Origin: Thermoproteota archaeon
Lineage (GTDB): Archaea; Thermoproteota; Bathyarchaeia; Bathyarchaeales; Bathyarchaeaceae
DNA: 64,000 nucleotides
Reading direction: 5' to 3'
Assembly (NCBI GenBank): GCA_042565955.1
Contig: JBHORG010000005.1
Coordinates: forward strand, 14,025-78,024
This document shows, piece after piece, positions 707-50,260 of the stretch. Below the pieces are notes generated by a model. It did not search any database. It worked only from the letters and a program-made list of their open reading frames with translations, and had not been told where the DNA came from. A program made the translations under genes and the position numbers. Positions within the stretch are counted from its first letter, which is position 1. The number at the start of each line of letters is the position of its first letter.

Positions 707-1807
707 CTATTGCATGGCTCCGTTTTTTGCGCAAATATGACAGATTGTTTTTTTCTTTGTGGTTTTCTCACTAGTAACTCTTTCTCTTGAAGATCTGTAA
801 GCATCGTTATTCCATATTGCAGAAAATCCTTCTTTGAGTGCGTTGCCAAAGCCCCATTTTCCCCCGTATACATTACAACATGGAAAGATGCTTCCATCCC
901 AGTTCATTACAGACCTTGTCCATAAAGATGAACAATCATTGCTGAGTGCTTTTTTCCTTCGCTTCAAAGCATTAGAGTAAGCGGAATAACGCTCATCATG
1001 AGGTAACCACTCTTTCACATTTTCAAATTGAGACTTAGAATTCAGAAAGAATCTCTGACTCATATCACAGAGAAGTTTCGCAAATTCTATATGATCAACA
1101 CCAATTTCGTTAGCTAATCTCTTTGCCATAGGCATCTCCTTTTCAGTGAATCTTGTTACAAAAAACTTCCATTGTAAGAGAGGTTTTCGAAGATTTAGAG
1201 TTCGTTTTTCTTTTACAATTTTTTTTATGTTTCCAATTACCATTTTAAAATTGTTTCCTCGTTGATAGCTTTCAACAGTTTCCTGACTTGCCCCATCTAG
1301 CGACACCATCAATATGTTTAATCCAGACTGCATCAGTTCCCTGCAAACTATGTCATCAAAAATGTTCAAGTTCGAACTTGTGGTTACTATAATGTTACGG
1401 TCTCGTGCGTATCGAACCATTTTAAAAAATTCTTTGTTTAGAAATGGTTCGCCCCAATTATACAACTCCACGATTAGCAGGTAGTCTCCGAGTTCGTCAA
1501 TGATTCTTTTAAAATTCTTAAAGGAAAGAAAACCTTTGGGTAGCCCTTCTTTTTCTTGACCTGTTGGACATAACGAACAGCGTAAAGGGCAAAAGTTGCC
1601 AGTTTCAATGGTCAAGTGGTATGGAAATCCCGAGACATATGGTGTTTTCAAAAACCGATGTTGAAATTCGACCAGAAAAAAATTGAAAATTGCTTTGGGC
1701 CTAATTAAAATACCAATGAGGTCTTTAGGCTGATCTTTAATGAATGAAAGAAAGTGATTGATTTCGTTTCGACCAAACCTAAATTCTCTTGTACTCATTC
1801 TAGTCAA
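707..1807 (-). CDS. radical SAM / SPASM-domain protein
   Basis: 366-aa ORF. TIETGNFCPLRCSLCPTG is a CxxxCxxC motif. The Cys-rich C-terminus (CSSLW...GSIFPCCNVYG...ICHICAKNG) fits a SPASM/twitch auxiliary-cluster domain. ATG at 1798 is an alternative to the TTG at 1807. Confidence 0.8.
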   Translation of the reverse strand: MTRMSTREFRFGRNEINHFLSFIKDQPKDLIGILIRPKAIFNFFLVEFQHRFLKTPYVSGFPYHLTIETGNFCPLRCSLCPTGQEKEGLPKGFLSFKNFKRIIDELGDYLLIVELYNWGEPFLNKEFFKMVRYARDRNIIVTTSSNLNIFDDIVCRELMQSGLNILMVSLDGASQETVESYQRGNNFKMVIGNIKKIVKEKRTLNLRKPLLQWKFFVTRFTEKEMPMAKRLANEIGVDHIEFAKLLCDMSQRFFLNSKSQFENVKEWLPHDERYSAYSNALKRRKKALSNDCSSLWTRSVMNWDGSIFPCCNVYGGKWGFGNALKEGFSAIWNNDAYRSSRERVTSEKTTKKKTICHICAKNGAMQ

Positions 1808-3453: not shown

Positions 3454-5655
3454 TTACAGTCCAGTTCTGTATCTGTTCATTAGTTCCTGTCTTTTGCCGC
3501 TGTTCCATCCGCTAACTGCCTGATAGTATCCAGTTACTCTTGACCACCATTCTACAGAGCTAGAGTTACAATGGGGGCATTGTTCGCGCATTGGTGAAGT
3601 GACTTTTCCGCAGTTGCTACATATGGTCAGGTCCTTGGTGTAGGCGTAGTAGCCGATGTTACTTTTCATGGTGATTCGTTTGGTCAGTTTGTATAGGGCT
3701 TCAGGGTCTGGATTAGCATCTCCCAGCCAAATGTGTAGCATGTTTCCGCCGTTCAAGAGTGGGAAGAACTTCTGCTCGATGTTCATCCGGTCAAACAATC
3801 CAATCTTGGCGCCTACATCAACGTGCGTTCCGTTACTGTAGTAGATAGGAACATCCTTCTTCCGGTCAGTAAGGAGAACCTTGGCTTTCCCCACATCTCC
3901 TTTAATGAGTTTCTCTGCAGGTTCTCGATAACCATTTGTTAGCAGATCAGCTATCGCGAATCTCTGGGCGGTAGATTCTGCGGGAGTCCGAGCTAATGCG
4001 ATTTTGTAGCCGCTCTTCGCTTCAAGTTCTTTCTTGTATTTCTGCATCTCTATAATCAGCTTGATAAGAATCTTTACTGATTCATTGTTTTCGTGCAATT
4101 GATAGCCTGTGTGATATTGAGCCATCTCGTTTCCACCCACAAGACCAATTGTGAATGTTAACGCATCAAAGTCCACTGCCGTAGTTCCCTTCTCTTTGGT
4201 TCTTGGATCCAAAGGTTGCTGTGTAGCGAAAGGTATCCTATCGTGTTTCAAGGCAAGGTTCATCCACTTCTTTTTGGCTTTGAAAACGTCAAGAGCTGAA
4301 TCCATCAGTCTACGAGTTTCCTCAAAGAGTAACTCATCATTTCCGTTGGCTTTGTAGGCAAGTCGTGGAAGATTCAAGCTAGTAACCTGCCAGCTTCCCA
4401 TCGTGAAATGTTTTCCTTCGTTAAAGTATAATTTATCGTAGAAGTCTTCGCTATCTTCAGGAGTTTCAACAAAACAGTAAGCACAGCATTGGTAACAAGA
4501 GACCCCTTTGCCGTAGCCTCTGTAAGCAGGCATCAAGTTATCAAAGTAGGGAAGCCCAAACTTGGCTACAACCTTGTGAACATCAAGCCACACATCATCA
4601 TATTCGGGCTTGAAGAACTCAGGACTTAAAGAATTTTCAAGCTTTGGAAAGTTAAAGGGCTTTCCCCAGTAATCGCCTTTACCAGCTACATCATAAAGGG
4701 CACGGAACATCATTCGGACTTCATCTTCGTAGTTTCCGTACACATCCGGTCCAATACGTCCATTCTTTACAATAGGAACGTTTTTCCACAGGTCAGGAAC
4801 TCCGGGTTGCACCTGAATGTTACTGAAGACCAGTTGTCCGCCTCTAGCAACGTATGCCTGAGTGTACTCAAAGAACATCATTTGCATAAGCTGACGGGCT
4901 CGCTCGTAGCTCACACCTCTAAAATAGGGGGCAAGAAAAACTAAAAAGTTGTAGAACCCTTCGCCACCAGCAAAGTTTGTCTGAGCAGAAGCTAAAATCT
5001 TAGCGGTGTGTAGAATAGCAACTTCCGGATGCTTAGCGGGACCAGCGATGCTTGTTCGGGTGCCTAGTCCGTCAGGCATCAAACCATAATAAAAGAAGTA
5101 ACGAAGATCCCAATCTTGACAGAAGGGTCTAGTTCCGAAATATTCTAGGTCGTGTATATGAAGGTCTCCTGAAAGGTGAGCATCAGCAATCTTTGGAGGC
5201 ATTAGTAGAAGGTATTCTTCTCCTGAAACCCAATCTGCTTTTCTTTTGTGAGCAGTTTCGGGATTAGGTTGAAGATTGGCGTTTTCTTTTGCTTTAAAAC
5301 CCTTTCCAACATCCATCAGGTACGCGTTATAGACGGGAGCGCCCACTCGAGTCAAAATGTTTCTGTAAAGGGCAAACTCGGGCTTTTGTGCAGATTTGGA
5401 GAGAAGAACATTGTTTACTAGTTCCCGGATAAGTGGACCACTGATGAACTTGAGATCCAAGTCAAAGACTTTCTGTTCCACCTCATTTGCTATCTCTTCA
5501 GCCTCTTGTCGGTTTATGGCTCTTATTTCATAGAATTGTTCAGCCAGTTTTGTTTCGGTAAGGAGCTGTTCTACTATTTGGCTTCTATTCCAGGGTATAA
5601 TGAAGCCGTCGGTTCCCCTAACCATTGGTCTACTTTTTTGAAGTATCTCAGTCAT
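3454..5655 (-). CDS. nrdD: anaerobic ribonucleoside-triphosphate reductase (class III RNR, catalytic subunit)
   Basis: 733 aa. Has an N-terminal ATP-cone-like segment and the core motif ADAHLSGDLHIHDLE. A C-terminal Zn ribbon (CSNCGK...CPHC) is followed by the glycyl-radical loop SRVTGYY. Confidence 0.92.
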   Translation of the reverse strand: MTEILQKSRPMVRGTDGFIIPWNRSQIVEQLLTETKLAEQFYEIRAINRQEAEEIANEVEQKVFDLDLKFISGPLIRELVNNVLLSKSAQKPEFALYRNILTRVGAPVYNAYLMDVGKGFKAKENANLQPNPETAHKRKADWVSGEEYLLLMPPKIADAHLSGDLHIHDLEYFGTRPFCQDWDLRYFFYYGLMPDGLGTRTSIAGPAKHPEVAILHTAKILASAQTNFAGGEGFYNFLVFLAPYFRGVSYERARQLMQMMFFEYTQAYVARGGQLVFSNIQVQPGVPDLWKNVPIVKNGRIGPDVYGNYEDEVRMMFRALYDVAGKGDYWGKPFNFPKLENSLSPEFFKPEYDDVWLDVHKVVAKFGLPYFDNLMPAYRGYGKGVSCYQCCAYCFVETPEDSEDFYDKLYFNEGKHFTMGSWQVTSLNLPRLAYKANGNDELLFEETRRLMDSALDVFKAKKKWMNLALKHDRIPFATQQPLDPRTKEKGTTAVDFDALTFTIGLVGGNEMAQYHTGYQLHENNESVKILIKLIIEMQKYKKELEAKSGYKIALARTPAESTAQRFAIADLLTNGYREPAEKLIKGDVGKAKVLLTDRKKDVPIYYSNGTHVDVGAKIGLFDRMNIEQKFFPLLNGGNMLHIWLGDANPDPEALYKLTKRITMKSNIGYYAYTKDLTICSNCGKVTSPMREQCPHCNSSSVEWWSRVTGYYQAVSGWNSGKRQELMNRYRTGL

Positions 5656-5656
5656 T

Positions 5657-5962
5657 TCAGATGGCCTCGAATACTTTTGAGAAATGTGGTTTGATCAGGC
5701 CATCACTTTCGAATATTTGGTTATCTGTGTAAACTTCCCCGTTAATTTCTAAGGCTGGCGCAGACATCACAACAAAGTTTCTCATTACTAGATTGGTCAT
5801 TACATTGGAGTCCTCTAGATTTTTCTCTTCAAAAATTGTGTTTTTGTTCTTTAACCATTTTTTTAGCATATCACATCTAGTGCATCCACTGGTTGTGTAT
5901 ACCACTACGCCATCGGCGGATGGATGCGCAGGAGTGCTGCCAAAGTCTTTTATTAAGCCCAT
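5657..5962 (-). CDS. glutaredoxin/NrdH-like thioredoxin-fold protein
   Basis: 101 aa. VVVYTTSGCTRCDMLKKWL carries a CxxC redox motif in a Grx-like context. Its stop lies 1 nt from the nrdD start on the same strand, so the two are likely co-transcribed. Confidence 0.75.
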   Translation of the reverse strand: MGLIKDFGSTPAHPSADGVVVYTTSGCTRCDMLKKWLKNKNTIFEEKNLEDSNVMTNLVMRNFVVMSAPALEINGEVYTDNQIFESDGLIKPHFSKVFEAI

Positions 5963-6205
5963 GAAAAATACCTCTTTTATTTGCGAGATAAAAACATTTA
6001 GTGAATTATACTATATTTAATTTTTTAGTCCTAATAGTATAAAATTCTGTATAAGCATCAAAACAAATTAACATTTAGACATACTTCCAACCCAAATCAA
6101 AAGGCAAAACAATAGACCTCTATTGATCAAGATGTATTTTTCATTATATATAGGGGTCGAACATCCAAAATAGCCATAACATATAGAAAAAAAATACATT
6201 TTTGA

Positions 6206-8428
6206 TCATAAACGACTAAAAGATTGAAGTAAATAAACAGAACCACATGAAGGACACCGCTCTAGTTTGCCATAAAAAATCTTCTGACAACTCGCACAAT
6301 AGGCAATGCTCCGATTGAACACATATAATCCAACATTATAGTTACCTGCAACATTTCTGGTAATGGACAACAAATCATCAGGCTTTTGTGACTCATCAGT
6401 AAGTGGGATAACAGACAGGTGACCTCCAGGAGTCAAATGGTGAAATTGTTCCTCCACTTTTAGTCGTTCTTTCCATGAGACGTCAACGCCTAAAGGCAAC
6501 GCTACCAAATCAGTATAGAAGGGCATTTCTCTGGTGCCTTGAGCACGAACCTTTACCCACCCATACGTCTCTGCATCAAGTTCTGCCAATCTTTTTGCAG
6601 CTTCAGCAGCGGGCACCATAGCTAAAGAAGCTCGAGTCTCAGGTTTCTTTGAATATTTCTCAATATCACTAGAGAGATATGACACAATTTTTTTTGCAAA
6701 ATCGAGAGTTTCACCCTCCTGTTTTAGGGGTTTTTCAAAGAAAGATTGGACGGTTTCGTTCAAACCAACAAAGCTAACGAGGCGAACAGCATTTTCGCTT
6801 CTAAAGTATTGGTCCCCATCAGTTTTTTGCATAAGGAATGGGAGCAAATGTTCACGTTCTCTCTGTTTGATTGTACGATATTTTATTTCAAGAGCCTTTA
6901 ATGCCAATTCCAATTGATCATCTAGGATTCGAAAGAATTTGTTCTCTCTGCCTCCTGCTTCATACATGACTCTGGGCAGATTAATTATAACGCTATCCAC
7001 GCTTCCTGTCTGCATAGTGTCTAGTTCCCAATCTCCTCTCCAGTCAGAAGCTAATCTGAATCCCATTGAAGTGTAAGATGCGTTTTCCTGCTCTGAAGAA
7101 CATAGGTTAGCAAAGTATGGAAGACCGTTTTCTGCGAGTTTGTGTGCCTCAATAAGAAGAGGGGCACATTTTGGATCTGTAAGGACCTCAGGGCGTAACT
7201 TTATTATTAAACATGGATTGAAAACAGGTTTATTCACGTCATCCTGAAGCATAACTTCAAAGAGGAGTGAAGCAAAACGACGACTTTCCTCAACAAAATC
7301 TCCGTAACATCCAACGTTTTTTCCTCCAGGTCCAATTGCTTCCTTCTCGCTCAGAAAGTCTGGAACAACAAGTTCAATACCCAAGGAAGCCCCAACTGAG
7401 TTCCCATTGGATATTGATTGATTCAAGTTAGAGATGAAGAGTCGAAGCCCTTCCCTGATTCGTTCCTCCGATATGTTTTTAGTGAAAGGGGCCAAAAAGA
7501 TGTTAAAAAAATCTAAGGCTTGTTCTCCTGAAGCTTCTGTAGAAGCAATTTTTAGGATGTTAGATGCAGTTATTAATGCAGCTTCGAGGCTTTTTGGCGG
7601 AAGATAAGAGGGTTCCTGAATGTTCGATCCTCCACGACTTAACCCATGCTTAAGGAAAAACCGTAGATTATGCATAAACTGGTCTGGTTTTAGAACCCAA
7701 GTACCAAGGTTCTTAAGATGTAAACCACCAGACAAATGTGCATCAGCAACATCCCGTGGAAGAACGTTAAGGAGAGTGTATTCTTCCATTACTGCGTCAG
7801 CTGCAAATTTGTGAATCGCCTCTACACTCTGGGACTTGGTTCCAGTTGCCACTATTAACTGGTAAACATCGAAAACTGGGAGTCCAAGTCGGGTTAGTTT
7901 GTGACGGTATTCTTCTAATCCCTTTTCAACTAGGATTGCGTTGACCATTTCTCGGATTAGAGGCGCGGTCAGGTATTTTGTTTTAAATTCTCCGAGTCGT
8001 TTTTCTGTTTCTCGAGCGATTTTTTGGGCTTGAAAAACAGGAACGTTTGCCTCTTTCACTAATGCTTCAACAATCTTGTTTCTGTCAAATTCTTCCATTG
8101 CAAGCCGAGAAGTTCTCACGAGGATCTTTTTTCTTTGGAAAAACTGTTGTTGAATGTCTTCTGTGAAGTTAATCATTGTTTTTCCGAGTTCGGTGAGTCG
8201 ATATTCTTTGTTGTCTACATCGGGTTCAATAAGGTCGGCGTTGAGGAGGTATTTTAGATGGTAAGCAAATCTTCCTGCATCTCTGCTTGGGTTTAGTTTT
8301 AGGACCTTCATGAGGTCAGTGTAAGATTGAGGACCCTTCTCTATTAGAGTGATAAGAAGTTGCATACGTAGAGAGGAAGATGCGGCCTTGAGAACTTTTA
8401 TTCCTGATTTTGGTCGACGCCTTGGCAT
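6206..8428 (-). CDS. NrdD-like protein with N-terminal winged-helix domain and ATP-cone; lacks glycyl-radical motif (probable non-catalytic paralogue)
   Basis: 740 aa. Residues ~20-95 look ArsR/wHTH-like (LRMQLLITLIEKGPQSYTDLMKVL...RFAYHLKYLLNADLIE...YRLTELG). An ATP-cone follows (KILVRTSRLAMEEFDRNKIVEALVKE...). The NrdD core shares ADAHLSGGLHLKNL with the neighbouring nrdD. The C-terminal Zn ribbon CASC...CPSC is followed only by GSVYLLQSFSRL-stop, with no RVxGY. Confidence 0.7.
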   Translation of the reverse strand: MPRRRPKSGIKVLKAASSSLRMQLLITLIEKGPQSYTDLMKVLKLNPSRDAGRFAYHLKYLLNADLIEPDVDNKEYRLTELGKTMINFTEDIQQQFFQRKKILVRTSRLAMEEFDRNKIVEALVKEANVPVFQAQKIARETEKRLGEFKTKYLTAPLIREMVNAILVEKGLEEYRHKLTRLGLPVFDVYQLIVATGTKSQSVEAIHKFAADAVMEEYTLLNVLPRDVADAHLSGGLHLKNLGTWVLKPDQFMHNLRFFLKHGLSRGGSNIQEPSYLPPKSLEAALITASNILKIASTEASGEQALDFFNIFLAPFTKNISEERIREGLRLFISNLNQSISNGNSVGASLGIELVVPDFLSEKEAIGPGGKNVGCYGDFVEESRRFASLLFEVMLQDDVNKPVFNPCLIIKLRPEVLTDPKCAPLLIEAHKLAENGLPYFANLCSSEQENASYTSMGFRLASDWRGDWELDTMQTGSVDSVIINLPRVMYEAGGRENKFFRILDDQLELALKALEIKYRTIKQREREHLLPFLMQKTDGDQYFRSENAVRLVSFVGLNETVQSFFEKPLKQEGETLDFAKKIVSYLSSDIEKYSKKPETRASLAMVPAAEAAKRLAELDAETYGWVKVRAQGTREMPFYTDLVALPLGVDVSWKERLKVEEQFHHLTPGGHLSVIPLTDESQKPDDLLSITRNVAGNYNVGLYVFNRSIAYCASCQKIFYGKLERCPSCGSVYLLQSFSRL

Positions 8429-8853
8429 AAATAATCACAATCACTATCTAGTACAATAGCCTAGTTTAAAAAATTAAAGTATAACACTAAAAGTTGTGGC
8501 ACCAAAGCTTGTCGGAAAAACATGAACAAACTAATAGAAAAATATGACCTACAACTGGACATTGTTTATGATGATGCTCGCTTTAACTATAAAAAATATG
8601 ACCAAGTGTAATACTAGAATTCAACAATAAACTAATATAGTGATAAGGGGAACCATCCAGTTTCTCAAGTTAATCATGAAAAGTTCAGAGCGTTCCTCTT
8701 TTCACTTCATCTCAGCTTAATTAACTTCAGTCGAGAGCCAAATGAGGTCTGAAAACATGAATTAAAACTTTAATTGTTTTCCGCGCAGATAGAATAGTCC
8801 TTATAGTTATAGAAAGATGGTGTAGGAAGATTAAATTAGACAAGAAGAATAAA

Positions 8854-9291
8854 TTGACGTTTCCTGGATCTGACACTATAAAATTGTTAAGTTTAATTAT
8901 TATTTTCACGTTTCTAGCTAATTTTTTCATATTTGTATCAGCTGTCAATGGTAGCGATACAATTTTTATCATGCCTTTAGGAGATTCCATAACTTTAGGC
9001 GATAACATGGGAGGTTCTAGACGAAAATTATTTCTGGACTTTGCAAATGTTGGTTTTAACGTTGATTTTGTTGGAAGCCTTTCAGATCCTGATTCACAGG
9101 AATTTGATATAGATCATGAGGGACATTCAGGTTGGCTTGCCGATCAAATAAAAGACAACGTGTATAATTGGCTTGAGTTAAATCCAGCGGACATTGTAAT
9201 ACTTCACATTGGAACAAATGACATCTCCCAAGGAGATGAAAATGTTAGGGAAGATCTTCCGAGTAGGAAACTTAGAGGTATAATTTTTTAG
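8854..9291 (+). CDS. SGNH/GDSL-family hydrolase, apparently C-terminally truncated (possible pseudogene)
   Basis: 145 aa with a TTG start and an N-terminal hydrophobic segment. Block I is IMPLGDSITLG, block II DHEGHSGW and block III ILHIGTNDIS. The ORF stops before the expected block V (DxxH), and no continuation is visible before the next gene. Confidence 0.55.
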   Translation: MTFPGSDTIKLLSLIIIFTFLANFFIFVSAVNGSDTIFIMPLGDSITLGDNMGGSRRKLFLDFANVGFNVDFVGSLSDPDSQEFDIDHEGHSGWLADQIKDNVYNWLELNPADIVILHIGTNDISQGDENVREDLPSRKLRGIIF

Positions 9292-9380: not shown

Positions 9381-10091
9381 CTAGGTGGGATTCACTTTTA
9401 TAAGTTCAGGAATTTGTCCTGCTTTTCCCACAACCCCTCGATATAAGATGAACACCCCTTTAACATCATCTATGCTTAGGGCTCTTTCAATTCCGTGCTT
9501 AATCACAGTTTGAACATCATCTCCAGTTATCAGGTTCGCCACAGAAGTAGCCGCAGCATCAGCAATCCCAGCGTCTACAGCAAAAATCGTTACTGCCTCT
9601 GCGTCGCCGAAACTAAAAGCATGACTGAATCGCCCAGAACTGGTAGCTACACCAAGAGGGAACTCCTTTAACCTAAAACCCATCTCTCTTGAGAGTGGTT
9701 CATCGCCTGCGGCAAAAGCAATATCAATAGGCTGATTTGAGATCGCGAAGACTTCTCCTCCATTCTCTACAACAGCAACCTTACAGCCAGCATTAATCAT
9801 ATCCTTCACGGCTAAGTCAGCTAAGACTCCTGCAACAGCAGCCATAGGACCAACATTTGCCTTCCTTGAAGCTTCCGACATCAACCACGCTACTTCTGGG
9901 GCACCCTCCACAGGCAAGGGTTCAAAAGAATAAAGAAACTGGGGATACTCTTTGATGTACTTTTCAAGGAGTCTACGGTGATGTTCTATCGATGATACGG
10001 CAGTTTCGATTCCACTTTCTTTTTCTGATATTATGGTGCATTCTGATTCTTTTAGGCGAAAAGCCCGTTTGAACAACGTTTCCTTTGTCAT
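9381..10091 (-). CDS. UPF0280 / ApbE-like protein (COG2122; MA1715-type)
   Basis: 236 aa. Motifs GPMAAVAGVLAD, VENGGEV, GVATSSGRFSHAFSFGDAEA and ADAAATSVAN match my recollection of the UPF0280 family. A 4-nt ATGA-type overlap joins it to the upstream ferredoxin gene. Confidence 0.7.
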   Translation of the reverse strand: MTKETLFKRAFRLKESECTIISEKESGIETAVSSIEHHRRLLEKYIKEYPQFLYSFEPLPVEGAPEVAWLMSEASRKANVGPMAAVAGVLADLAVKDMINAGCKVAVVENGGEVFAISNQPIDIAFAAGDEPLSREMGFRLKEFPLGVATSSGRFSHAFSFGDAEAVTIFAVDAGIADAAATSVANLITGDDVQTVIKHGIERALSIDDVKGVFILYRGVVGKAGQIPELIKVNPT

Positions 10092-10510
10092 TTTTTATTG
10101 TTGCGGTGCTGCTCAACAAGGGTTATGGCTCTAGCTGGACAAGCATCAACACATAATCCGCAAGGACTACCAATACAGGTTTTCTCAGTGAAAACAATAG
10201 AATAATCATTGTCATATGAAATGGCATCCACTGGACATAGAGCATAACAGGCACCACAGTCAAAACATTTGTCGCAGTCTACATCAATGAGTTTTGGAAA
10301 CTTTACAACTACACCTTTAGCTTTGAATGCATTAACAATTTTTTCAATGTGAACAGCAGGCACTTCAATAAGGATATCACCACCAAGGGAATTGACGGTA
10401 GCAGTGACTATCCTCATTGGTAATCCAAGTTCGAGAATCACTTGCGAAGTTATTGGCTCTGCAACGTTTTCTTCAGAGAATCTTAATAGAATTCTATCCA
10501 AGTTTTTCAC
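10088..10510 (-). CDS. NIL-domain / 2x[4Fe-4S] ferredoxin (MA1822-type)
   Basis: 140 aa. The N-terminal NIL-like half is followed by two ferredoxin motifs, CDKCFDCGACYALCP and CIGSPCGLCVDACP. It overlaps both neighbours by 4 nt. Confidence 0.75.
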   Translation of the reverse strand: MKNLDRILLRFSEENVAEPITSQVILELGLPMRIVTATVNSLGGDILIEVPAVHIEKIVNAFKAKGVVVKFPKLIDVDCDKCFDCGACYALCPVDAISYDNDYSIVFTEKTCIGSPCGLCVDACPARAITLVEQHRNNKK

Positions 10511-12015
10511 CTTCCTCTTAGTTTAGAAATATCTTCAGATGTTATAAGACCTACAACCTTCTTGTACTGGTCAAGCACGGGTAAAGCAGAGATATGATGT
10601 CGCGACATCTTCCTTGAAGCAGTCTCCAACGACTCCTCTGGACGTGTGGTATACACTTTTTTGGTGATAATGTCAACCAGTTTTGTTTTTCCTTCAGCAA
10701 CGGCTCGGGTCAAGTCCCAAGAAGTAACTATACCTTTAATCACTCCACGATTATCAGTTACAGCCACATGGTTAACGGATTTACTGATTATCCGCTGTGC
10801 AACCGTTTTAATATTCTCGTCAACCCTGCACGTAACAGCCTCATGAGCGACTCGGTTAACTAAAATTATCTCTTTGCTTTGCCTCATTGGGTTACAAACC
10901 GAATTGGTTGGCAGGTTCTCAGCAGGAGCAGACAAATAGAATGTACCGTTCTCAATCCATGACTTAAGTGTCTTTGTGATTTTCTTTGCCGTTTTCAAGC
11001 TAGAAAGCGAACTGACCTTAATTCTCCTATCATTAATTGTTACTTCACCTGACTTTAATGTAGCGTAATTCACTTTACCAAGTTTAGGTCGCCCTCTTCT
11101 TGGAATCCCATAATCAATAATGTCAGTGAGAATTTCCTCATCCCTCAACGCCGTCTTCCTAGCCAATCCTTCATTTAGTATAGGGATAGGAATACCCATT
11201 CCAACATAGAGGCTTGTACCATACTTTGTGAAAGCGCCTCCACGAATAAACTCTGGGTTCATCTGTTTACAGTCTCCACGAACCATAATTGTACCAAACC
11301 TGTTAGATGGATCATGCTGGGTGCCTTCTCCAATAACGTAGCCTTGTCCGCCTCCCAAGAATATACGAGTTCCAATTCCAATGGTCTCGTAATCTGGATC
11401 GTTCATTAGAGGGTTCAAGGCTCCTGCCCCAGAGTAAGTGGCATTTCTAAATTTTGGCAAAAGCTTACCCATGTACGTGTATATTATGTCATCGCGACTG
11501 TTTGTGGCACAAACGTATCGTTGGTAACAGTTACGAAAGTTCAGTAAATAGAACTGATTCAAGTCATCTTTGGTAACTGTTGTATCCAGTTTAGTTCTGG
11601 GATAACAGTCAGTCCCGTATGCTGTGGCTCTAACCTCAACTTCTTTGCCAGCAATCAAATCTTCGATAACATGTCCACCTCCATACTCGTAAGGTTGAGT
11701 CTCAGACATCATGGTAGCGCCTATGTACAGGTCAACCGCCGCACCTGGGTGGCTGACTTCAACATCATTTAACCATGCCCTCTGAATTTTGATGGGCGGA
11801 TCTGAGTGTCCAATATTTATTACGGCACCTGAAGAACACATAGCTCCGAAAGTTCCTGTTGTAACAACATCAACTTCCTTGCAGGCAACTTCCACACCAC
11901 TACTTTCCACGAGTTTCTTCATTTCTTCAGCTGTTACGACTTGAACGTCACCAGATTTAATTTTCTGGTTGATTTCTGCTATTGACCGTCCGTTACTTCT
12001 ATTTCGGGCTACCAT
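10507..12015 (-). CDS. COG1900 (DUF39) + CBS-pair protein, sulfide-dependent homocysteine biosynthesis type (MA1821/MJ0100-like)
   Basis: 502 aa. The N-terminal ~380 aa look DUF39-like (VVTTGTFGAMCSSGAVINIGHSDPPIK...). A C-terminal CBS pair follows (VNHVAVTDNRGVIKGIVTSWDL... and HHISALPVLDQYKKVVGLITSEDI). Confidence 0.75.
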   Translation of the reverse strand: MVARNRSNGRSIAEINQKIKSGDVQVVTAEEMKKLVESSGVEVACKEVDVVTTGTFGAMCSSGAVINIGHSDPPIKIQRAWLNDVEVSHPGAAVDLYIGATMMSETQPYEYGGGHVIEDLIAGKEVEVRATAYGTDCYPRTKLDTTVTKDDLNQFYLLNFRNCYQRYVCATNSRDDIIYTYMGKLLPKFRNATYSGAGALNPLMNDPDYETIGIGTRIFLGGGQGYVIGEGTQHDPSNRFGTIMVRGDCKQMNPEFIRGGAFTKYGTSLYVGMGIPIPILNEGLARKTALRDEEILTDIIDYGIPRRGRPKLGKVNYATLKSGEVTINDRRIKVSSLSSLKTAKKITKTLKSWIENGTFYLSAPAENLPTNSVCNPMRQSKEIILVNRVAHEAVTCRVDENIKTVAQRIISKSVNHVAVTDNRGVIKGIVTSWDLTRAVAEGKTKLVDIITKKVYTTRPEESLETASRKMSRHHISALPVLDQYKKVVGLITSEDISKLRGR

Positions 12016-12119
12016 TTTTCGTTACTCCCATTTCTCTCCCCTTTAGGAGATGAAACATAGCAAAGACCATTACCATTTTAATATTTTACTGAAAAAAATA
12101 TTCCAAAAAGAATATTAAG

Positions 12120-12698
12120 TTGTCTGTCCAAATTCATGACATGTTACCTTCCATAGATGAAGTTTCCAAAAAACGAAGAATCGCGGGACTTACACAGCAA
12201 AAGCTCGCAAGATTGGCAAGTGTAAGCCAGTCACTTATTGCCAAACTTGAATCTCAGAAAATTGATCCTTCTTATACCAAAGTCAAGGCAATATTTGATG
12301 CGTTGGAAAGACTACAAACAGAATCAGAGATTCGAGCTGCAGAAGTGCTACAGAACCATATTATCGGAATTCAAAAGAGCGACCCAGTCTCAAAGGCGGT
12401 TCAAATGATGGCAGAATATGGTTATTCTCAACTTCCAGTATTTGATGAAGAACATTCTGTTGGAAGCATCTCAGAAAAGACAATTATCGGAAAGGTTTCT
12501 GCAGGTAAAGATCTCTCTGAATTATCCAAACTTCCTGTGGGCAATGTTATGGAGGAGGCTTTCCCTCAGGTTGGAGAGGATGCTCCGTTGCCTTTAATTT
12601 CGAACCTCTTGCAAGTTTATTCCGCAGTCCTGATTTCGACGAAGGGCAAGGTTGTCGGCATCGTAACAAAAGCAGATTTATTGAAGATGCTCCTCTAA
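12120..12698 (+). CDS. XRE-type HTH + CBS-pair transcriptional regulator
   Basis: 192 aa. The HTH is GLTQQKLARLASVSQSLIAKLESQK, followed by two CBS motifs (YSQLPVFDEEHSVGSISEKTI and AVLISTKGKVVGIVTKADL). TTG at 12120; the first ATG is at 12141. Divergent from the homocysteine cluster. Confidence 0.75.
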   Translation: MSVQIHDMLPSIDEVSKKRRIAGLTQQKLARLASVSQSLIAKLESQKIDPSYTKVKAIFDALERLQTESEIRAAEVLQNHIIGIQKSDPVSKAVQMMAEYGYSQLPVFDEEHSVGSISEKTIIGKVSAGKDLSELSKLPVGNVMEEAFPQVGEDAPLPLISNLLQVYSAVLISTKGKVVGIVTKADLLKMLL

Positions 12699-38480: not shown

Positions 38481-38503
38481 TTAATTACTATTTATACATT
38501 TCT
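38481..38503. repeat. attL core (direct repeat copy 1)
   Basis: TTAATTACTATTTATACATTTCT. It contains the last four sense codons and the stop codon of the integrase gene (minus strand ...GAA ATG TAT AAA TAG). Confidence 0.75.
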
Positions 38504-39981
38504 AGAGGCTCATAAACAGTCTGAGTTTCTTTTGATGCTATCGTTGTTAACAGTTCTTTTTTCATCATTTCTTTTAGGGCGTTACTAAGCAGTTTTACTT
38601 CGTTCTCTTCATTAGTTGTATGTTTTTCGCATATTGTTCTATGTGGTTCCGCTAGAGCTTCTTTGACTAGGATTTTTTCTGGATCGTATCCCCAGGTTCT
38701 TATCATTTCTTTGAGCATGAATGCACGATCAATTTTTGTTCTTGACTGGATTGAAAGGTTGCTTGCTCGATATATGTTTCTTAGGAAGTCTATGCCTTTC
38801 ATTTTTATGTCTTGGTAAGTGCTGATTTTATGTCCCATCATATATTCTATGTATTCTCTGGGGGTACCTAGGGCTGTGAGTTGTGTTTTGAAGTATTTTC
38901 GTAGGCTGTGGGGACGGATGCAATAGCGTCTTTGTGGTGTAGAAGCTATTAGACCTGCTTTGGTATAAAGTCGTCTTATAACCCTGGATAATTGATCTCT
39001 TGTTAGAGGTTTTGGTTCTTTGTGGGTTTTTGTTCTGATGAGTGGTGTTGTGTCGGTGATTGTTTCTGGTGGGATTTTGCCGCTTGGGGTTCCTCTTTTG
39101 CGGAGGGTTAGGTAATCTTTCAGGAATTTTGTGGCTTCTGCTCCGATGAAGGTGTCGTAGTCGCATGTTTTTCCTTTCACTATTTCGGATTCAACGCTAA
39201 GGTGAATGGGGCGAATGTTCTGTTCTAGGTCGTGTTTTATGTGTCTGTATTCGAGTTTGCAGAGGGTTCCTACTCTAAAGCCTCCTAATGCAAGTAGGGT
39301 AATGATGACTTTTTCTCGAAGGTCTGCAAAGTTTAGTAGATTGCTGAGTTCTTCTGATGTGGGAGATCTATCTCCGTAGACAATTCTTATTCGGGGCTTC
39401 AATATTTGGGGGATTTCTATTCTGTTAGCTTTTAGGAATGTTCTCACAGCGCTTACGTGAACGTTTATAGTATTTGGCGATGAACCGGCGGCTCTTAGTT
39501 CTCCTATATAATCATCTATTGATTCTGATAACCGTCGGATGACTCTAGAATTAAGGTCACATTCTTCAGTGAGGCAACTAGCAACGAGTGTATCTGGAGT
39601 TTTTTTGACCCAGTCGATGAAGCGACTGAGACAGTATATGTAGACTTTTAGAGTACCACAACTTGAGGTTTTATGGCGCCTTAGATGAGTTGCTAATTTG
39701 AATACACTTTGATTATCAATAGAGAAACGTATTAGAGTAGGATGTGTTGAAACCAGGCTTTCTATGATATAGTTTGTTACGTCTAGGTCTCGCTTGTTAT
39801 AGATGTTAGGTATTTGGACGGTTACTGGATGTCTCAATGCTTTTCCTGTTTTGGAGGTCGTTATTGTGAGGTCTACGGAATTGTTTTTGCTTAGCAACGG
39901 TTTGAACTCTTCGTAGCGTAGTGGAAATCGTTCTATTGTCAATGTTGATTGTGTTTGGAATTTGTTGTTGGTGGTTTGCAT
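38488..39981 (-). CDS. int: tyrosine recombinase / integrase
   Basis: 497 aa. The catalytic-domain pattern is LALGGFRVGTL (Arg I), IRPHSLRKYF (HxxR) and MMGHKISTYQD (His plus the nucleophile Tyr region). The N-terminal SAM-like domain contains VSAVRTFLK. Confidence 0.85.
   Translation of the reverse strand: MQTTNNKFQTQSTLTIERFPLRYEEFKPLLSKNNSVDLTITTSKTGKALRHPVTVQIPNIYNKRDLDVTNYIIESLVSTHPTLIRFSIDNQSVFKLATHLRRHKTSSCGTLKVYIYCLSRFIDWVKKTPDTLVASCLTEECDLNSRVIRRLSESIDDYIGELRAAGSSPNTINVHVSAVRTFLKANRIEIPQILKPRIRIVYGDRSPTSEELSNLLNFADLREKVIITLLALGGFRVGTLCKLEYRHIKHDLEQNIRPIHLSVESEIVKGKTCDYDTFIGAEATKFLKDYLTLRKRGTPSGKIPPETITDTTPLIRTKTHKEPKPLTRDQLSRVIRRLYTKAGLIASTPQRRYCIRPHSLRKYFKTQLTALGTPREYIEYMMGHKISTYQDIKMKGIDFLRNIYRASNLSIQSRTKIDRAFMLKEMIRTWGYDPEKILVKEALAEPHRTICEKHTTNEENEVKLLSNALKEMMKKELLTTIASKETQTVYEPLEMYK
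38504..38518. repeat. inverted-repeat arm (AGAGGCTCATAAACA) adjacent to attL core
   Basis: Perfect reverse complement of TGTTTATGAGCCTCT at 56056..56070. Confidence 0.7.
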
Positions 39982-40056
39982 TTCTTTTCTCTCGCAGTTT
40001 TTCCATATCTATAGTAGTTATAATAAATATTTATATGTATCTATAATAGATAATCT

Positions 40057-40239
40057 ATGGTTATTCACATGCGTACTTACATCTTCACGGAACATGAAAG
40101 AAAAATTGTAAAAGAATTGATTAAAACAGGAACAGAGCTACAGGGCATCAGAATGATTTTCAGCAGAACCAGGTTATTTAGCCAACTTAAAGAAGACGTT
40201 GAACTCTATGATGCGATCCGGAAACATTTGAATAAGTAA
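40057..40239 (+). CDS. hypothetical small helical protein
   Basis: 60 aa, divergent from int. No motif was recognised. An excisionase or regulator role is only a guess from its position. Confidence 0.3.
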   Translation: MVIHMRTYIFTEHERKIVKELIKTGTELQGIRMIFSRTRLFSQLKEDVELYDAIRKHLNK

Positions 40240-40240
40240 A

Positions 40241-40477
40241 CTATCCAAGTTTTTTAACCTCAAGAATGTCGCCTTTTAATATTACCAGACCGCTTTCGGA
40301 TGGTTTGGTTTTTTGATTAGGAAGGGGGTTTTTGCTTCTATCATGTAGAATCCACATAGCCTCTTCACTCTCTTTCAGAACCCAACCAACACATTCCCGA
40401 ATAGAAGGATAGTAGAGACTAGAATCCGAGTTTCGGAAGAGAACATGATCCCGATAACAGACGTAAACCAATGTCAT
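40241..40477 (-). CDS. hypothetical protein
   Basis: 78-aa ORF with its start 3 nt after the stop of the upstream 325-aa gene on the same strand. Confidence 0.35.
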   Translation of the reverse strand: MTLVYVCYRDHVLFRNSDSSLYYPSIRECVGWVLKESEEAMWILHDRSKNPLPNQKTKPSESGLVILKGDILEVKKLG

Positions 40478-40479
40478 TA

Positions 40480-41457
40480 TTATAACAAGTATTCTTCAAT
40501 TTTCCAGCCATACTCAAGCGAATAATTATTCAATCGTTCGTAACTTTTCTGACAAATATTGCTCCAAGTTCCATTAACATACTGGATACACCAAGACAGA
40601 AGTTCGATTTTCTCACAAAAGTGGCATTTATCTTCGAGGGTTTTTTCAAGCTTTACTATCGATTTAATGTCTATAGGTACTTTCACGACTGTATGTTTTG
40701 GTTGACATTCTGCGTTGCAAACAAGTACCCCAAGAGGCAAAGATACAAAATTAGGTGGTAAGATTTTTTTCCATTTTCTAATTGTTTTTCGAGTAACGCC
40801 AAATATTTTTTCCAGTTGACGTTCTGTGAGCTTATTTCCAGAAATGCATAGTAAAACAGCAGAATAAAGACAGTTAAGTTTCTTGTTGGTTAAAGGACCA
40901 TTCTTTTTTATGAAAAATTGTGCTTTCCACTCGGCATTACGGATTGTTTCAGTACTTATGTCTGCGGCGAGAATCTCTTGCCTTTTAGTATTAATTAGAT
41001 AGTGTAATTGTTTTATACATTTTTTTAGGGGGTCTTTTTCCATTTTTCTTAACGCTCTTTTAAATTCTCGATATTTTGAGGCGGGATGAATATAGCTTCC
41101 TTCTTGTTTGGCTATTTCAGTTGAGAGAGAATCATGTGAACCCGCGAATTCACAGTAATAATCTGAAAAGTCAAAAAATCGATAACCATCCAATTTTCCA
41201 CATTTTTTGCACTTGAAAACCAGTATATCGTCCTTATCAAAAAGTGTATCATCCTCTTCGCCCTCTTTTCCACAAAAGGGACAAGTATCTAAGATTTCCT
41301 TCTGTTTCTCTATGATTTTGAGTTTTATTTTTTCGCTTTCATGACCACACTTAATACAAATTTGTTTGCCTAGCATAGGATAGTTCTCAAAATACTCAGT
41401 AGAACTACAATTCGGGCATATTCCAAACTCGATTGAGTCACTTTTCAATTTTAGCAT
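40480..41457 (-). CDS. multi-Zn-ribbon protein with a TFB/cyclin-like HTH segment (putative element-encoded transcription factor)
   Basis: 325 aa. Zn ribbons are CPNCSS...CIKCGHE and CPFCGK...CKKCGK. Mid-protein, LNCLYSAVLLCISGNKLTERQLEKIFGVTRKTIRKWKK resembles the TFIIB cyclin-repeat HTH. A further C-terminal CHFC...C pattern is present. Confidence 0.4.
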   Translation of the reverse strand: MLKLKSDSIEFGICPNCSSTEYFENYPMLGKQICIKCGHESEKIKLKIIEKQKEILDTCPFCGKEGEEDDTLFDKDDILVFKCKKCGKLDGYRFFDFSDYYCEFAGSHDSLSTEIAKQEGSYIHPASKYREFKRALRKMEKDPLKKCIKQLHYLINTKRQEILAADISTETIRNAEWKAQFFIKKNGPLTNKKLNCLYSAVLLCISGNKLTERQLEKIFGVTRKTIRKWKKILPPNFVSLPLGVLVCNAECQPKHTVVKVPIDIKSIVKLEKTLEDKCHFCEKIELLSWCIQYVNGTWSNICQKSYERLNNYSLEYGWKIEEYLL

Positions 41458-41775
41458 TCAACCCAAAGTTGCGCTGGTTTAATACTTTCATAATTAGGAA
41501 TAGGTCTTTTTAGATAAAAAGTTGTAAAAAAGGAATTGCGTAGTGAAGTAGTTCCTCAATAGTACACATTTCTGCGTAGAAAATCGCTCAAAATTACCCC
41601 AAAAAATGGAAAGGCGATAATTTAGGGAATATACAGCATGATGTTTTGTTATACTCCTAGATAAAAAAGCATCGTATAGGCTTAATCGATCCTAGAAATT
41701 ATTTTGTAATCTTTCTCACATCAAAAGGATAATAAGAAATTCCAATACAATATTGAACGTTAGGAGTAAGGATTC

Positions 41776-44190: not shown

Positions 44191-44193
44191 CTG

Positions 44194-45492
44194 GTGGGTA
44201 CAACAATAACCAAAGATTACATCCATACAGAAATAGGTTGCATTCCAAAAGATTGGAAGGTCACTACCTTTAATGATTTATTCACATTTCTCTCCACAGG
44301 TAGCAATTCTCGAAGCGAATTAACTACCGAGGATGGTGACGTAAATTATATTCATTATGGAGATATTCATAAAAAATGGGATTTAATCCTAGATTGTGAT
44401 AAAGCACAAATTCCTTTTGTATCATATGAAAAGATAAAGAATTTGCCTTACGTCAAAAATGGCGATTTAATAATTGCAGATGCCTCTGAAGATTATGAGG
44501 GAATTGGAACTAGTGTTGAAGTTAAGAATGTAGACGATAGAAAGATTGTATCAGGATTGCATACACTTCTTTTGAGGGGAGATAAAAATCAAATCGTAGA
44601 CGGTTATAAGGCATATTTAACTTCAATTTTTTCGGTGAAAAAAGCATTAATAACTATAGCAACAGGGATTTCAGTTTATGGTATTTCAAAGAACGCACTA
44701 AAAGATGTTAAACTTCCATTACCAGTAGAACTAAGAGAACAAATTGCTATTGTAGAAATTCTTTCAAACATAAATTCCTTAATTAACTCTTTGGATCAGC
44801 TTATTGAAAAAAAGAAGAACATCAAAAAAGGACTAGTGCAGAATATTTTTACAGGGAAGATAAGGTTAGAAAATTTTTATGAAGAATGGGTTGAACGAAA
44901 TTTTTCAGAATTATGTTGGTTTCAAGAAGGACCAGGTCTAAGAAACTGGCAATTCAGAAACGAGGGAATAAAAGTAATAAATGTGACAAACCTTGAAAAT
45001 GGATTATTAAATCTAGAGAATACGGATAGACACATTTCTTTAGAAGAATTTCATTCAATGTACCGCCATTTTGAAATTGATAAAGGTGACATAGTTGTTG
45101 CAAGTTCAGGAAACAGTTACGGTAAAGTTGCAATAGTCAGAAATGAAGATTTACCTTTAATGATGAATACGAGTGTTATCCGGTTTAAACCTCTGAAAGG
45201 ATTAGTATATGAGTTCTTGTTTCAATTTTTAAAATCAAGGAAATTCAAAACTCAAATAGATTTATTGATTACAGGCGGTGCACAGCCAAATTTTGGACCC
45301 GCACACTTGAAGAAGATAAAAATACTTGTTCCTCCAAGCGAAAAAGAACAACGCGCAGTAGGAAGATTATTGTCAGATATGGATTCTGAGATTGAAGTAA
45401 TTGAGCAAAAAAGTGAAAAATATAGACAGTTAAAAATAGGTTTGATTCAACAGCTGCTTATGGGGAGAACTCGGTTAAAATGGAAGAGCTGA
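44194..45492 (+). CDS. hsdS: Type I R-M specificity subunit
   Basis: 432 aa. Two target-recognition halves are each followed by a conserved helical spacer (LPLPVELREQIAIVEILSNINSLINSL... and VPPSEKEQRAVGRLLSDMDSEIEVIEQK...). Confidence 0.85.
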   Translation: MGTTITKDYIHTEIGCIPKDWKVTTFNDLFTFLSTGSNSRSELTTEDGDVNYIHYGDIHKKWDLILDCDKAQIPFVSYEKIKNLPYVKNGDLIIADASEDYEGIGTSVEVKNVDDRKIVSGLHTLLLRGDKNQIVDGYKAYLTSIFSVKKALITIATGISVYGISKNALKDVKLPLPVELREQIAIVEILSNINSLINSLDQLIEKKKNIKKGLVQNIFTGKIRLENFYEEWVERNFSELCWFQEGPGLRNWQFRNEGIKVINVTNLENGLLNLENTDRHISLEEFHSMYRHFEIDKGDIVVASSGNSYGKVAIVRNEDLPLMMNTSVIRFKPLKGLVYEFLFQFLKSRKFKTQIDLLITGGAQPNFGPAHLKKIKILVPPSEKEQRAVGRLLSDMDSEIEVIEQKSEKYRQLKIGLIQQLLMGRTRLKWKS

Positions 45493-48400: not shown

Positions 48401-48551
48401 AGATTACAAACCTGATGGCTGGAGAGGCAACAGAATAAAAGAGAAACAGGTTAAAAATGCAATTAGAAGGGCGTTAGCAGAGTTTGATATTGAAGATGAA
48501 CAAACAGTAGTAATGATTCTGGAGTTGGCGAAAAAACAAAATGGTTACTAA
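45480..48551 (+). CDS. hsdR: Type I R-M restriction (helicase-nuclease) subunit
   Basis: 1023 aa. The N-terminal PD-(D/E)xK region is RPDIVLYVNGIAFAVIELKR. SF2 motifs are HTQGSGKS (I), VFVDECHR (II) and GFTGTP (III). Overlaps hsdS by 13 nt. Confidence 0.88.
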   Translation: MEELNVGQLERLTQDRVVKLFQDKKMDYCYLGNWEQRENSNVEKDLLIKFLKKRNYSDILIKKTLYQLNQVASNQNKALYDINKEVYSLLRYGIKIKEDIGETKQTVWLIDWKNPKNNDFYIAEEVTVLGQHNKRPDIVLYVNGIAFAVIELKRSIVSVSEGIRQNLDNQKEIFIRQFFSTVQIVIAGNDTEGVRYATIETPEKYYLKWKENSQIKNKLDKDLSLICNKERLLEIIHDFIVFDSGVKKICRHNQYFGVKAAQTYLKRREGGIIWHTQGSGKSLIMIWLAKWIREHIDNSRVLIITDRKELDEQIEDFFSSVDEKIYRTKSGKDLIDKLNLAFPWLICSLIHKFGTNTERYIDDYFKDILVNLPSNFKAKGDLYVFVDECHRTQSGELHKAMKKIIPNAILIGFTGTPLLKRDKKKSIEVFGRYIHTYKYDEAVSDNIVLDLQYEAREIDQNISSPDKIDQWFEAKTRGLTDYAKAILKMKWGNMQKVRSSQPRLSRIVTDIMLDMETKNRLGSGRGNAMLVSGSIYQACQFYELFQNNGLKKCAIITSYNPHISKIKGESTGEDDDTDEIEKYETYQKMLDYYATQYPEIKTKGFDEVIKQKFVKEPGQMKLLIVVDKLLTGFDAPPATYLYIDKSMQDHGLFQAICRVNRLDGEDKDYGFIVDYKDLFNSLSKAVTDYTSEAFEGFDKDDVEGLLKDRLRKGKTDLDSDLETIKALCEPVKPPKDTSAFIDYFCGNTENPEELKNTERKRLSLYKITSRLLRSYTNIANEMKEAGYTPQETTKIKSDVRYYENIRSEIKLASGDYIDLKAYEPAMRHLIDAYIDAEESRTVSAFGDLTLVDLIINNGVAAINSLPTNIRENKNSTAETIENNVRKLIIEEKPTNPKYYERMSILLDELIQHRKEQALEYEQYLKQIVELTKKVKNPAVSISYPRSVNTNARRALYDNLENNEKLALKVNDYILDYKPDGWRGNRIKEKQVKNAIRRALAEFDIEDEQTVVMILELAKKQNGY

Positions 48552-50200: not shown

Positions 50201-50260
50201 TTTTCATCATTAACTTTCATGTTGTTTTCAAGTCTTTCGACTACTTTTCTTCACTTTTTG

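Follow-up and report, generated by a model that had tools for sequence, protein, structure and literature searches.

A winged-helix, ATP-cone protein with an inactive class III ribonucleotide reductase core: a candidate regulator of ribonucleotide reductase genes in Thermoproteota

The locus and the domains of the 740-aa protein

The stretch of DNA considered here, called the window throughout, consists of 64,000 nucleotides of contig JBHORG010000005.1 (assembly GCA_042565955.1) from a Thermoproteota archaeon of the Bathyarchaeia. On one strand it carries a glutaredoxin gene (grx), the nrdD gene for a class III ribonucleotide reductase (RNR) and, upstream of both, a gene for a 740-aa protein in which a winged helix-turn-helix (wHTH) and an ATP-cone precede an NrdD-type core devoid of catalytic residues (Table 1). 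An earlier note, made from the sequence by eye, had proposed that this protein could be a nucleotide-sensing regulator; the proposal is supported by synteny with the genes of two RNR classes, by purifying selection, by occurrence in aerobic organisms and by the ATP-cone and wHTH being the best conserved parts. On balance we lean toward viewing the protein as a class III RNR that has lost its radical chemistry and become a one-component transcription regulator of RNR genes, with the ATP-cone as its sensor.

Table 1. Genes, domains and candidate promoter elements at the locus (window coordinates)
Feature	Position	Strand	Basis
Gene for the 740-aa protein (wHTH + ATP-cone + inactive NrdD core)	6206..8428	(-)	ORF list, Pfam, NCBIfam, AlphaFold2, Foldseek
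ArsR/SmtB-type winged helix, aa 13-95	8144..8392	(-)	Pfam, AlphaFold2, Foldseek
ATP-cone, 'VRTS' type, aa 102-178	7895..8125	(-)	Pfam PF03477, AlphaFold2
Conserved linker LTRLGLPVFDV, aa 179-197	7838..7894	(-)	Invariant R180, G182, P184
NrdD-fold barrel without catalytic residues	6314..7837	(-)	BLASTP, 61-member tally, Foldseek, dN/dS
NrdD-type C-terminal Zn ribbon, ending in SFSRL	6209..6313	(-)	Four Cys, recurrent stop position
Conserved promoter block of the 740-aa protein gene, TTATACTTTAATTTTTTAAACTAG	8461..8484	(-)	Alignment of the window and L001-L004
Candidate operator ATACAGAATTTTATAC in the grx-nrdD promoter	6037..6052	(-)	Footprinting, box searches
Probable BRE/TATA of grx-nrdD, CTAAAAAATTAAATATAG	6011..6028	(-)	Conserved block; archaeal consensus
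Glutaredoxin/NrdH-like gene, first of the presumed target operon	5657..5962	(-)	Pfam Glutaredoxin E 5e-8; TIGR02194 weak
Bona fide class III RNR NrdD, 733 aa	3454..5655	(-)	TIGR02487 528.9 bits, cut-off 326.35

The two NrdD-like proteins of the window share 26% identity (BLASTP, E 5e-68). In the neighboring NrdD the motif tally described below finds Cys179, the QCC391 loop, Gly709 (within RVTGYY), NxN and HIHD all present, and alignment to solved NrdD structures of the PDB identifies PFC and RVTGY as its catalytic motifs. On the NrdD equivalog model TIGR02487 the 740-aa protein scores 294.7, under the cut-off that its neighbor exceeds. The Pfam NRDD profile (PF13597) matches aa 198-731 of the 740-aa protein with an E value of 1.7e-85; the match runs from position 5 to position 530 of the 562 in the profile, indicating that the glycyl-radical end is missing. 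The full-length AlphaFold2 (AF2) model, obtained with a 64-sequence family alignment as input, has a pLDDT of 88.5 and a pTM of 0.80. When it was compared with the PDB by Foldseek, the top matches were all class III RNRs (9d3x, 8p2c, 8p2s, 4col and 1h79), with E values from 1e-28 to 1e-20 and target TM scores of 0.65-0.78.

The N-terminal segment had been described in the earlier note as an ArsR-like winged helix, and structure prediction bears this out. AF2 models aa 1-102 with a pLDDT of 93 and an H-H-H-H-beta-beta-H topology, and the best PDB matches of this model in Foldseek are CadC (1u2w), ArsR (6j05), HlyU, BigR, CzrA and SmtB (TM 0.62-0.75, rmsd ~2-3 A, probability 1.0); the E value is only ~3e-3 because the domain is small. 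Profile matches are fainter in this protein: DUF7347, an archaeal winged-helix family, is found at aa 13-87 (E 1.4e-5, 25.7 bits, cut-off 27.6), HTH_5 reaches 14.5 bits (cut-off 22) and the HTH_45 match is weak. Another family member, P0133, lies above the Pfam cut-offs for HTH_5 (27.7), HTH_20 (33.9) and DUF7347 (36.5). A basic tail, MPRRRPKSG, precedes the winged helix; the recognition helix carries the family motif GKFAYHLK, and H57, Y76 and G82 are invariant.

The ATP-cone, which the protein was also said to keep, is recognized by PF03477 at aa 104-174 with 26.8 bits, above the gathering threshold of 25.8. The AF2 model shows the corresponding fold, a beta-hairpin formed by strands 103-105 and 111-113 followed by helices spanning 116-178. 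In the family V104, R105, F114, I119, E126, R159 and R175 of the cone are invariant. The idea that the protein retains the allosteric nucleotide-binding parts of NrdD is thus supported for the ATP-cone only; of the specificity site the mapping covered the hairpin region, which is poorly conserved in the family.

Loss of catalysis, conservation and distribution of the family

Three losses had been read by eye from an alignment of the two proteins of the window, and all of them hold in more formal comparisons. In BLASTP, Cys179 of NrdD, the bottom cysteine, stands opposite Gln250. For the thiyl cysteine BLASTP is ambiguous in the loop; in a 95-sequence MAFFT alignment the SMGFRL stretch falls on SMGCRTRL/QCCR of true NrdDs, so that the cysteine is replaced by Phe457. 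At the C-terminus the Zn ribbon is kept, with C711, C714, C725 and C728 all present and invariant in alignment A1, and the chain stops at SFSRL where true NrdD runs on as SRVTGYY. Further motifs are affected. The NxN substrate flap, which in true NrdD comes next after the linker, is deleted, and the HxHD triphosphate motif reads H237-L-K-N240; Asn483 of the INLPR motif is retained. The NxN flap and the HxHD motif were defined for the NrdD of Prevotella copri (PMC11226230).

The same pattern extends to the family, as seen in a motif tally of 61 divergent wHTH-bearing representatives against 14 true NrdDs. The bottom cysteine is found in 0/61 representatives and in 14/14 NrdDs, the second His of HxHD in 0/61 and 13/14, and the NxN flap is deleted in 61/61, with the Asn present in 12/14 NrdDs. 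A Gly at the radical position occurs in 11/61 family members against 13/14 NrdDs; the Tyr that follows it in 12/14 NrdDs is outside the commonest residues tallied in the family. Conversely, the Asn of INLPR is present in all the proteins of both sets (61/61 and 14/14), and the Zn-ribbon cysteines in 54-55 of the 61 representatives and in 14/14 NrdDs.

The short C-terminus is not the product of a sequencing frameshift, an outcome against which the earlier note had warned. In a close-homolog search of 5.8 billion proteins, >120 clusters were found at 72-99% identity; nearly all have 740-742 aa and end in SFSR[ILV], and no remnant of a glycyl-radical tail is found downstream of the stop in any frame. 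The gene is intact, and the same stop in >100 clusters together with the lack of a tail remnant rules out truncation as an artifact. A subgroup of 770 aa has a degenerate tail, with RVSAKH where true NrdD has RVTGYY; from its sequence the subgroup appears to stand midway in the decay of the glycyl-radical domain.

The family is under purifying selection. The ratio of nonsynonymous to synonymous substitution rates (dN/dS), determined by the Nei-Gojobori method against four orthologous loci, is ~0.05-0.11 overall, 0.01-0.07 in the wHTH and ATP-cone and 0.06-0.13 in the barrel, values that are approximate as synonymous sites are near saturation. Mean column identity among members at <=50% identity is 0.68 in the ATP-cone, 0.66 in the linker, 0.54 in the wHTH and 0.39 in the barrel. 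Stronger conservation of cone, linker and wHTH than of the barrel is the pattern expected of a sensor and DNA-binding protein in which the core is a scaffold.

An exhaustive HMMER search of 1.84 billion representatives at 50% identity returned 2386 proteins at E <= 1e-3. Among its full-length top matches, 61 bear the N-terminal winged helix of ~90 aa, and the wHTH-ATP-cone-NrdD architecture is found in all of these divergent cluster representatives (61/61). At least 582 relatives occur in GTDB species-representative genomes of Bathyarchaeia; the family is also present in Ca. Culexarchaeum, in metagenome-assembled genomes (MAGs) of Nitrososphaerota and in cultured aerobic ammonia oxidizers, namely Ca. 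Nitrosotenuis aquarius, cloacae, chungbukensis and DW1. The family is large and archaeal; it is also ancient, and undescribed in the literature searched. A full-text search found no published account of a wHTH-ATP-cone-NrdD-like protein, though papers outside its coverage may exist, and no description of DUF7347 or of the 'anaerobic RNR' of ammonia oxidizers was found in the searched literature.

Annotations of family members vary in the source databases, from 'anaerobic ribonucleoside-triphosphate reductase' to 'ArsR family transcriptional regulator', the name given to some of them by PGAP, and 'hypothetical protein'. Members in ammonia oxidizers are also named 'ribonucleoside-triphosphate reductase (formate)' (P0299, P0325, P0363 and P0367 in RefSeq/IMG, and many MAG proteins). 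Since the catalytic residues are missing, the 'anaerobic RNR' naming in aerobic ammonia-oxidizing archaea is very probably a systematic misannotation, and entries of this kind would affect metabolic reconstructions that infer anaerobic dNTP synthesis from them.

A rough neighbor-joining tree sets the wHTH family apart from true NrdDs. Active NrdDs bearing a wHTH were considered as possible intermediates and rejected, the long N-termini of true NrdDs being second ATP-cones. A second kind of degenerate NrdD was also observed, with two tandem ATP-cones and an NrdD core (P0195, P0207, P0213, P0218 and P0181). The core ends at Pfam position ~465-504 of 562 in the first four and at 530 in P0181, where the Zn ribbon is present and the Gly motif missing; all five lack both the Gly loop and a winged helix. 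Some of their relatives keep the bottom cysteine, and in the tree they adjoin the true NrdDs.

Gene neighborhoods and candidate promoter elements

The earlier note had suggested a survey of related genomes for co-occurrence with nrdD. The order found in the window, with the gene of the 740-aa protein followed on the same strand by nrdD, with or without grx, recurs in 12 Bathyarchaeia loci in which the candidate regulators are 44-83% identical to that of the window. In three divergent loci that were looked at individually, L083, L084 and L085, the gene after the regulator is that of a class II-type RNR, with Ribonuc_red_lgN/lgC domains and TSCPD or an ATP-cone. When metagenomes were scanned with a profile of the thaumarchaeal clade, 80 loci were returned, and a class II-type RNR lies directly downstream on the same strand in 69/69 of those with enough downstream sequence; the complete genome of Ca. 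Nitrosotenuis aquarius has the same arrangement. The presence of two RNR classes as neighbors, together with obligate aerobes as hosts, argues against a residual enzymatic role or an NrdD-specific partner role and favors a regulatory role directed at RNR. Indeed, a glycyl-radical enzyme is implausible in this family because members occur in obligately aerobic ammonia oxidizers.

Where both RNR and pyrB (aspartate carbamoyltransferase) are present, the gene order is regulator - RNR - <pyrB - pyrI>. The simplest reading is an ancestral regulator-RNR-pyrBI neighborhood in which the RNR gene was swapped between classes or relocated and the regulator stayed in place. The pyrB-neighbor loci (L081, L086, L088, L119-L137 and ~50 of L014-L080) belong to Bathyarchaeia, Culexarchaeia and Nitrososphaerota, and pyrB is usually followed by divergent pyrI and V-type ATPase genes. 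The adjacency to pyrB may be residual synteny or may reflect a functional link with pyrimidine synthesis.

Other neighbors were observed in some loci. An HTH_3 protein is encoded immediately upstream of the regulator in L081 and L086, and L083 has, at ~9850-9930, just upstream of its thaumarchaeal regulator, a tRNA-like 3' end, ggttcaaatccggccgaccccac. A radical SAM-SPASM protein of 366 aa, encoded in the window at 707-1807 (-), directly follows nrdD in L004 and L005. No canonical nrdG adjoins the nrdD of the window; a 312-aa radical-SAM protein at 56202-57140 (-), with a weak Fer4_12 match, is similar to glycyl-radical activases and is a candidate for the NrdG-type activase of the window NrdD.

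Phylogenetic footprinting of the regulator-grx spacer in Bathyarchaeia loci revealed a box, ATACA(A/G)AATTTTATAC, lying 7-8 bp upstream of a sequence, CTAAAAAtTTAAAt, that resembles a TFB recognition element and TATA box (BRE/TATA), an assignment that rests on the archaeal BRE/TATA consensus. The box recurs in the nrdD promoters of L006, L011, L013 and L066, where the regulators are 44-66% identical, and L012 has a fully palindromic variant, TATACAAAAAAATTGTATA. The BRE/TATA block is kept in seven aligned intergenic regions and in these four divergent loci. Within the 64-kb window the copy at the grx-nrdD promoter, 8 bp upstream of BRE/TATA, is the sole match at <=3 mismatches; when 1.12 Mb of loci were searched at <=2 mismatches, 14 of 19 matches fell in regulator-nrdD intergenic regions, in 13 loci with regulators only 44-83% identical to that of the window.

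The class II RNR promoters of ammonia-oxidizing archaea (AOA) have a different, symmetric element, GTGTCAA-N5-TTGAY(RC), present once per locus ~30 bp upstream of a TATA-like box. The spacing of its half-sites, one turn of the helix, is the one expected if a winged-helix protein bound as a dimer. The Bathyarchaeia box was not found in the class II loci; the core ACAAAATT is common to the two elements, which is a lead only.

Upstream of the gene for the 740-aa protein itself, the TATA-like sequence TTTAAAC lies ~35 nt before the ATG and recurs upstream of most of 80 homologs, so it looks, from sequence and position, like the basal TATA element of the gene. Autoregulation through a shared operator was considered and is unsupported, the boxes being found at RNR promoters only. 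In the 243-bp spacer between the candidate regulator and grx no RNA element was detected, Rfam giving no match at E <= 1 across 5600-9000. Two further blocks of this spacer are conserved across seven loci, GACCCCTATATATAA at 6144-6158 (-) and CTAAATGTTAATTT at 6065-6078 (-); the nrdD core promoter lies well downstream of both, and GACCCCTATATATAA resembles a TATA element ~50 nt past the stop of the regulator gene.

Elsewhere in the window, a cluster for homocysteine biosynthesis occupies 9381-12698. It comprises a protein with HcyBio and CBS domains (10507-12015), a protein with NIL and ferredoxin domains (10088-10510) and a 236-aa protein without Pfam match (9381-10091), with a divergent HTH_3+CBS regulator at 12120-12698. 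A region of low GC content (0.33-0.35 against ~0.40 elsewhere) extends over ~38488-56000 and starts with a tyrosine integrase (38488-39981). It encodes a type I restriction-modification system (HsdM 41776-44190, HsdS 44194-45492, HsdR 45480-48551), a YgjP-like peptidase (48541-49278), a Schlafen/AlbA_2 protein (51273-52544) and a radical SAM-SPASM protein (54602-55624), and is probably an integrated defense island.

Proposed role, rival explanations and known systems

From its domains we infer that the 740-aa protein binds DNA and ATP/dATP. In the mechanism proposed here the NrdD barrel would be a dimerization scaffold, as in NrdD dimers, placing the winged helices of both subunits on a palindrome that lies shortly before the BRE/TATA of an RNR gene; in the window this site would be the candidate operator. 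The ATP-cone would report the state of the adenine (deoxy)nucleotide pool, and whether ATP or dATP is bound would determine the placement of the cones or the state of oligomerization, by analogy with the nucleotide-driven changes described for NrdD (PMC11226230) and NrdR (PMC9110341). Such a change would in turn act as a switch on DNA binding or on the interaction with TBP/TFB. As for the sign of regulation, the candidate sites lie upstream of BRE/TATA, as the sites of archaeal activators (Ptr2 and TrmBL1/SurR, for example) typically do; activation of grx-nrdD under dNTP demand thus appears somewhat more likely than repression, with low confidence, and this is the weakest step of the proposal.

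Several observations weigh against a nucleotide-sensing regulator of RNR genes. The hairpin of the cone reads V104-R-T-S-R108, without the canonical Lys-Arg pair (no K-R-D-G), the domain exceeds the Pfam cut-off by 1 bit only, and the ATP-cone alone gave no meaningful matches, and no ATP-cone, in a sequence search against the PDB. In the 95-sequence alignment the 'VRTS' motif set is found also in the cones next to the core of archaeal NrdDs that are catalytically intact, and R105, R159, R175 and R180 could, judging from their conservation, serve phosphate binding in place of the Lys-Arg pair. On the side of the target genes, ~50 Bathyarchaeia loci and those of Culexarchaeia have no RNR gene within 8 kb, and their conserved neighbor is a convergent pyrB. 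The Bathyarchaeia box is only semi-palindromic, a direct repeat of TTATAC being an alternative reading, and neither this box nor the AOA element turned up in the upstream region of the regulator's own gene. The regulator may bind both elements; what ties it to them is their adjacency only.

The observations on pyrB also nourish the most serious of the rival explanations, namely that the protein is a transcription factor whose main targets or signal are others, such as pyrimidine and nucleotide metabolism (pyrBI), replication genes, or a ligand different from ATP/dATP. Convergent pyrB, with or without pyrI, is the most conserved neighbor, in ~50 Bathyarchaeia loci, in Culexarchaeia and in other lineages; the cone is of the non-canonical VRTS type; and the invariance of Asn483 in INLPR and of several other barrel residues means that the barrel might still bind a ligand. 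However, pyrB is convergent, so that its promoter region is not common with that of the regulator gene, and the promoter boxes are found at RNR promoters and none near pyrB; the gene order where both are present makes the adjacency of pyrB look like a residue of RNR loss or relocation. We consider this explanation unlikely, if clearly the one to be kept in mind. Less likely still, with perhaps a slim chance of being correct, is that the 740-aa protein modulates activity through protein contacts, being a pseudo-subunit that binds or heterodimerizes with the active RNR or its activase, with the winged helix as an interaction or localization module and not a reader of specific DNA sequences. The fold of the NrdD dimer interface is retained, adjacency to RNR genes fits a physical partner equally well, and wHTH domains are sometimes protein-binding. 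Under this explanation the partner would have had to change from a class III NrdD to an enzyme of class II, with its different quaternary organization. The explanation is also opposed both by the wHTH, which is of ArsR type, with a basic tail and a recognition-helix motif kept across the family, and whose conservation exceeds that of the barrel, and by the separate conserved elements with palindromic symmetry that precede the RNR genes.

That the protein is still an enzyme, a divergent member of the NrdD fold with non-glycyl-radical chemistry or another source of the radical, is very improbable. About 11 of the 61 representatives do retain a Gly at the radical position (e.g. RISGRF, RVNGMY), Asn483 is invariant and the dN/dS of the barrel is low (~0.06-0.13); but none of the 61 has either cysteine, an NxN flap or the second His of HxHD, the position after the Gly does not have Tyr among its commonest residues, the protein of the window has no Gly loop at all, and the family thrives in aerobes with the barrel as its least conserved part. 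A decaying duplicate of nrdD, or an assembly or frameshift artifact, might be suspected of a gene that adjoins an intact nrdD paralog with which it shares so little identity. Length and stop are, however, conserved in >100 independent clusters, dN/dS is ~0.05-0.1, hundreds of relatives occur across the classes of Thermoproteota and the full-length AF2 model is confident; these data refute it, and its probability is practically nil.

An RNR-directed regulator remains the reading that we prefer. NrdR is rare in archaea (PMC9110341, PMC12176259), leaving a regulatory niche open. We would give even chances to the wider proposition that Thermoproteota, including the ammonia-oxidizing archaea, which are abundant worldwide, control their dNTP supply by a fossil RNR, in which an ATP/dATP-sensing cone and a dimeric barrel have gained a winged helix and which was kept in place through a swap of the RNR between class III and class II. 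To our knowledge, the regulation of RNR transcription in archaea is essentially unknown, and the family is a concrete candidate regulator in hundreds of archaeal species, cultivable ammonia oxidizers included. If the reading is correct, the family would play the part of NrdR in archaea and provide the first transcription factor derived from an RNR, an essential enzyme recycled into a regulator of its own pathway; it would also offer a natural 'allostery-only' NrdD for the study of ATP-cone signaling without catalysis.

NrdR is the bacterial repressor of RNR genes; it reads ATP/dATP through an ATP-cone, binds palindromic boxes at RNR promoters and is often encoded beside RNR genes (PMC9110341, PMC12176259). 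The protein was said in the earlier note to be functionally analogous to NrdR and built differently, and this description is apt, as the likeness lies in the proposed role, that of an RNR-dedicated regulator with an ATP-cone sensor, and the defining architecture of NrdR is absent: the 740-aa protein would be a functional analog, not a family member. NrdR consists of an N-terminal Zn ribbon and an ATP-cone in ~150 aa, whereas the 740-aa protein is five times larger and starts with a wHTH. Its DNA-binding module is an ArsR-type winged helix and not a Zn ribbon, its sole Zn ribbon being the C-terminal one of NrdD; its cone is of the archaeal NrdD 'VRTS' type, and a complete dead NrdD barrel is added. 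The candidate sites are upstream of BRE/TATA, while those of NrdR lie over the transcription start site.

With class III NrdD (e.g. PDB 8p23, 9d3x, 4coi and 1h78) the protein shares the ATP-cone, the linker, the 10-stranded barrel, the Asn of INLPR and the C-terminal Zn ribbon; it differs by the lack of the bottom and thiyl cysteines, of NxN and HxHD and of the Gly loop with its Tyr, by a TIGR02487 score under the cut-off and by the added wHTH. With the ArsR/SmtB proteins (CadC, ArsR, CzrA, SmtB, HlyU, BigR) it has in common the fold of the N-terminal 100 aa and an HL-containing recognition helix. In the ArsR proteins, which are dimers of ~100-120 aa, metals or redox state are sensed within the wHTH domain itself, whereas in the 740-aa protein sensor and dimerization presumably come from the 640-aa RNR remnant.

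A disabled dimeric enzyme fold serves as the effector-binding domain also in MocR/GabR regulators, which join a wHTH to an aminotransferase fold, and in ROK repressors, with an HTH and a sugar-kinase fold. The likeness is in the combination of a winged helix with a full-size enzyme fold, the enzyme fold being a different one here; we know of no transcription regulator with an RNR-derived fold, and none appeared in the searched literature. An RNR large subunit that has lost catalysis and been re-used for another function is known from cytomegaloviruses, in the inactive R1 homologs M45/UL45; these are viral or related to eukaryotic hosts, derive from class I RNR and act in cell-death signaling and not in DNA binding.

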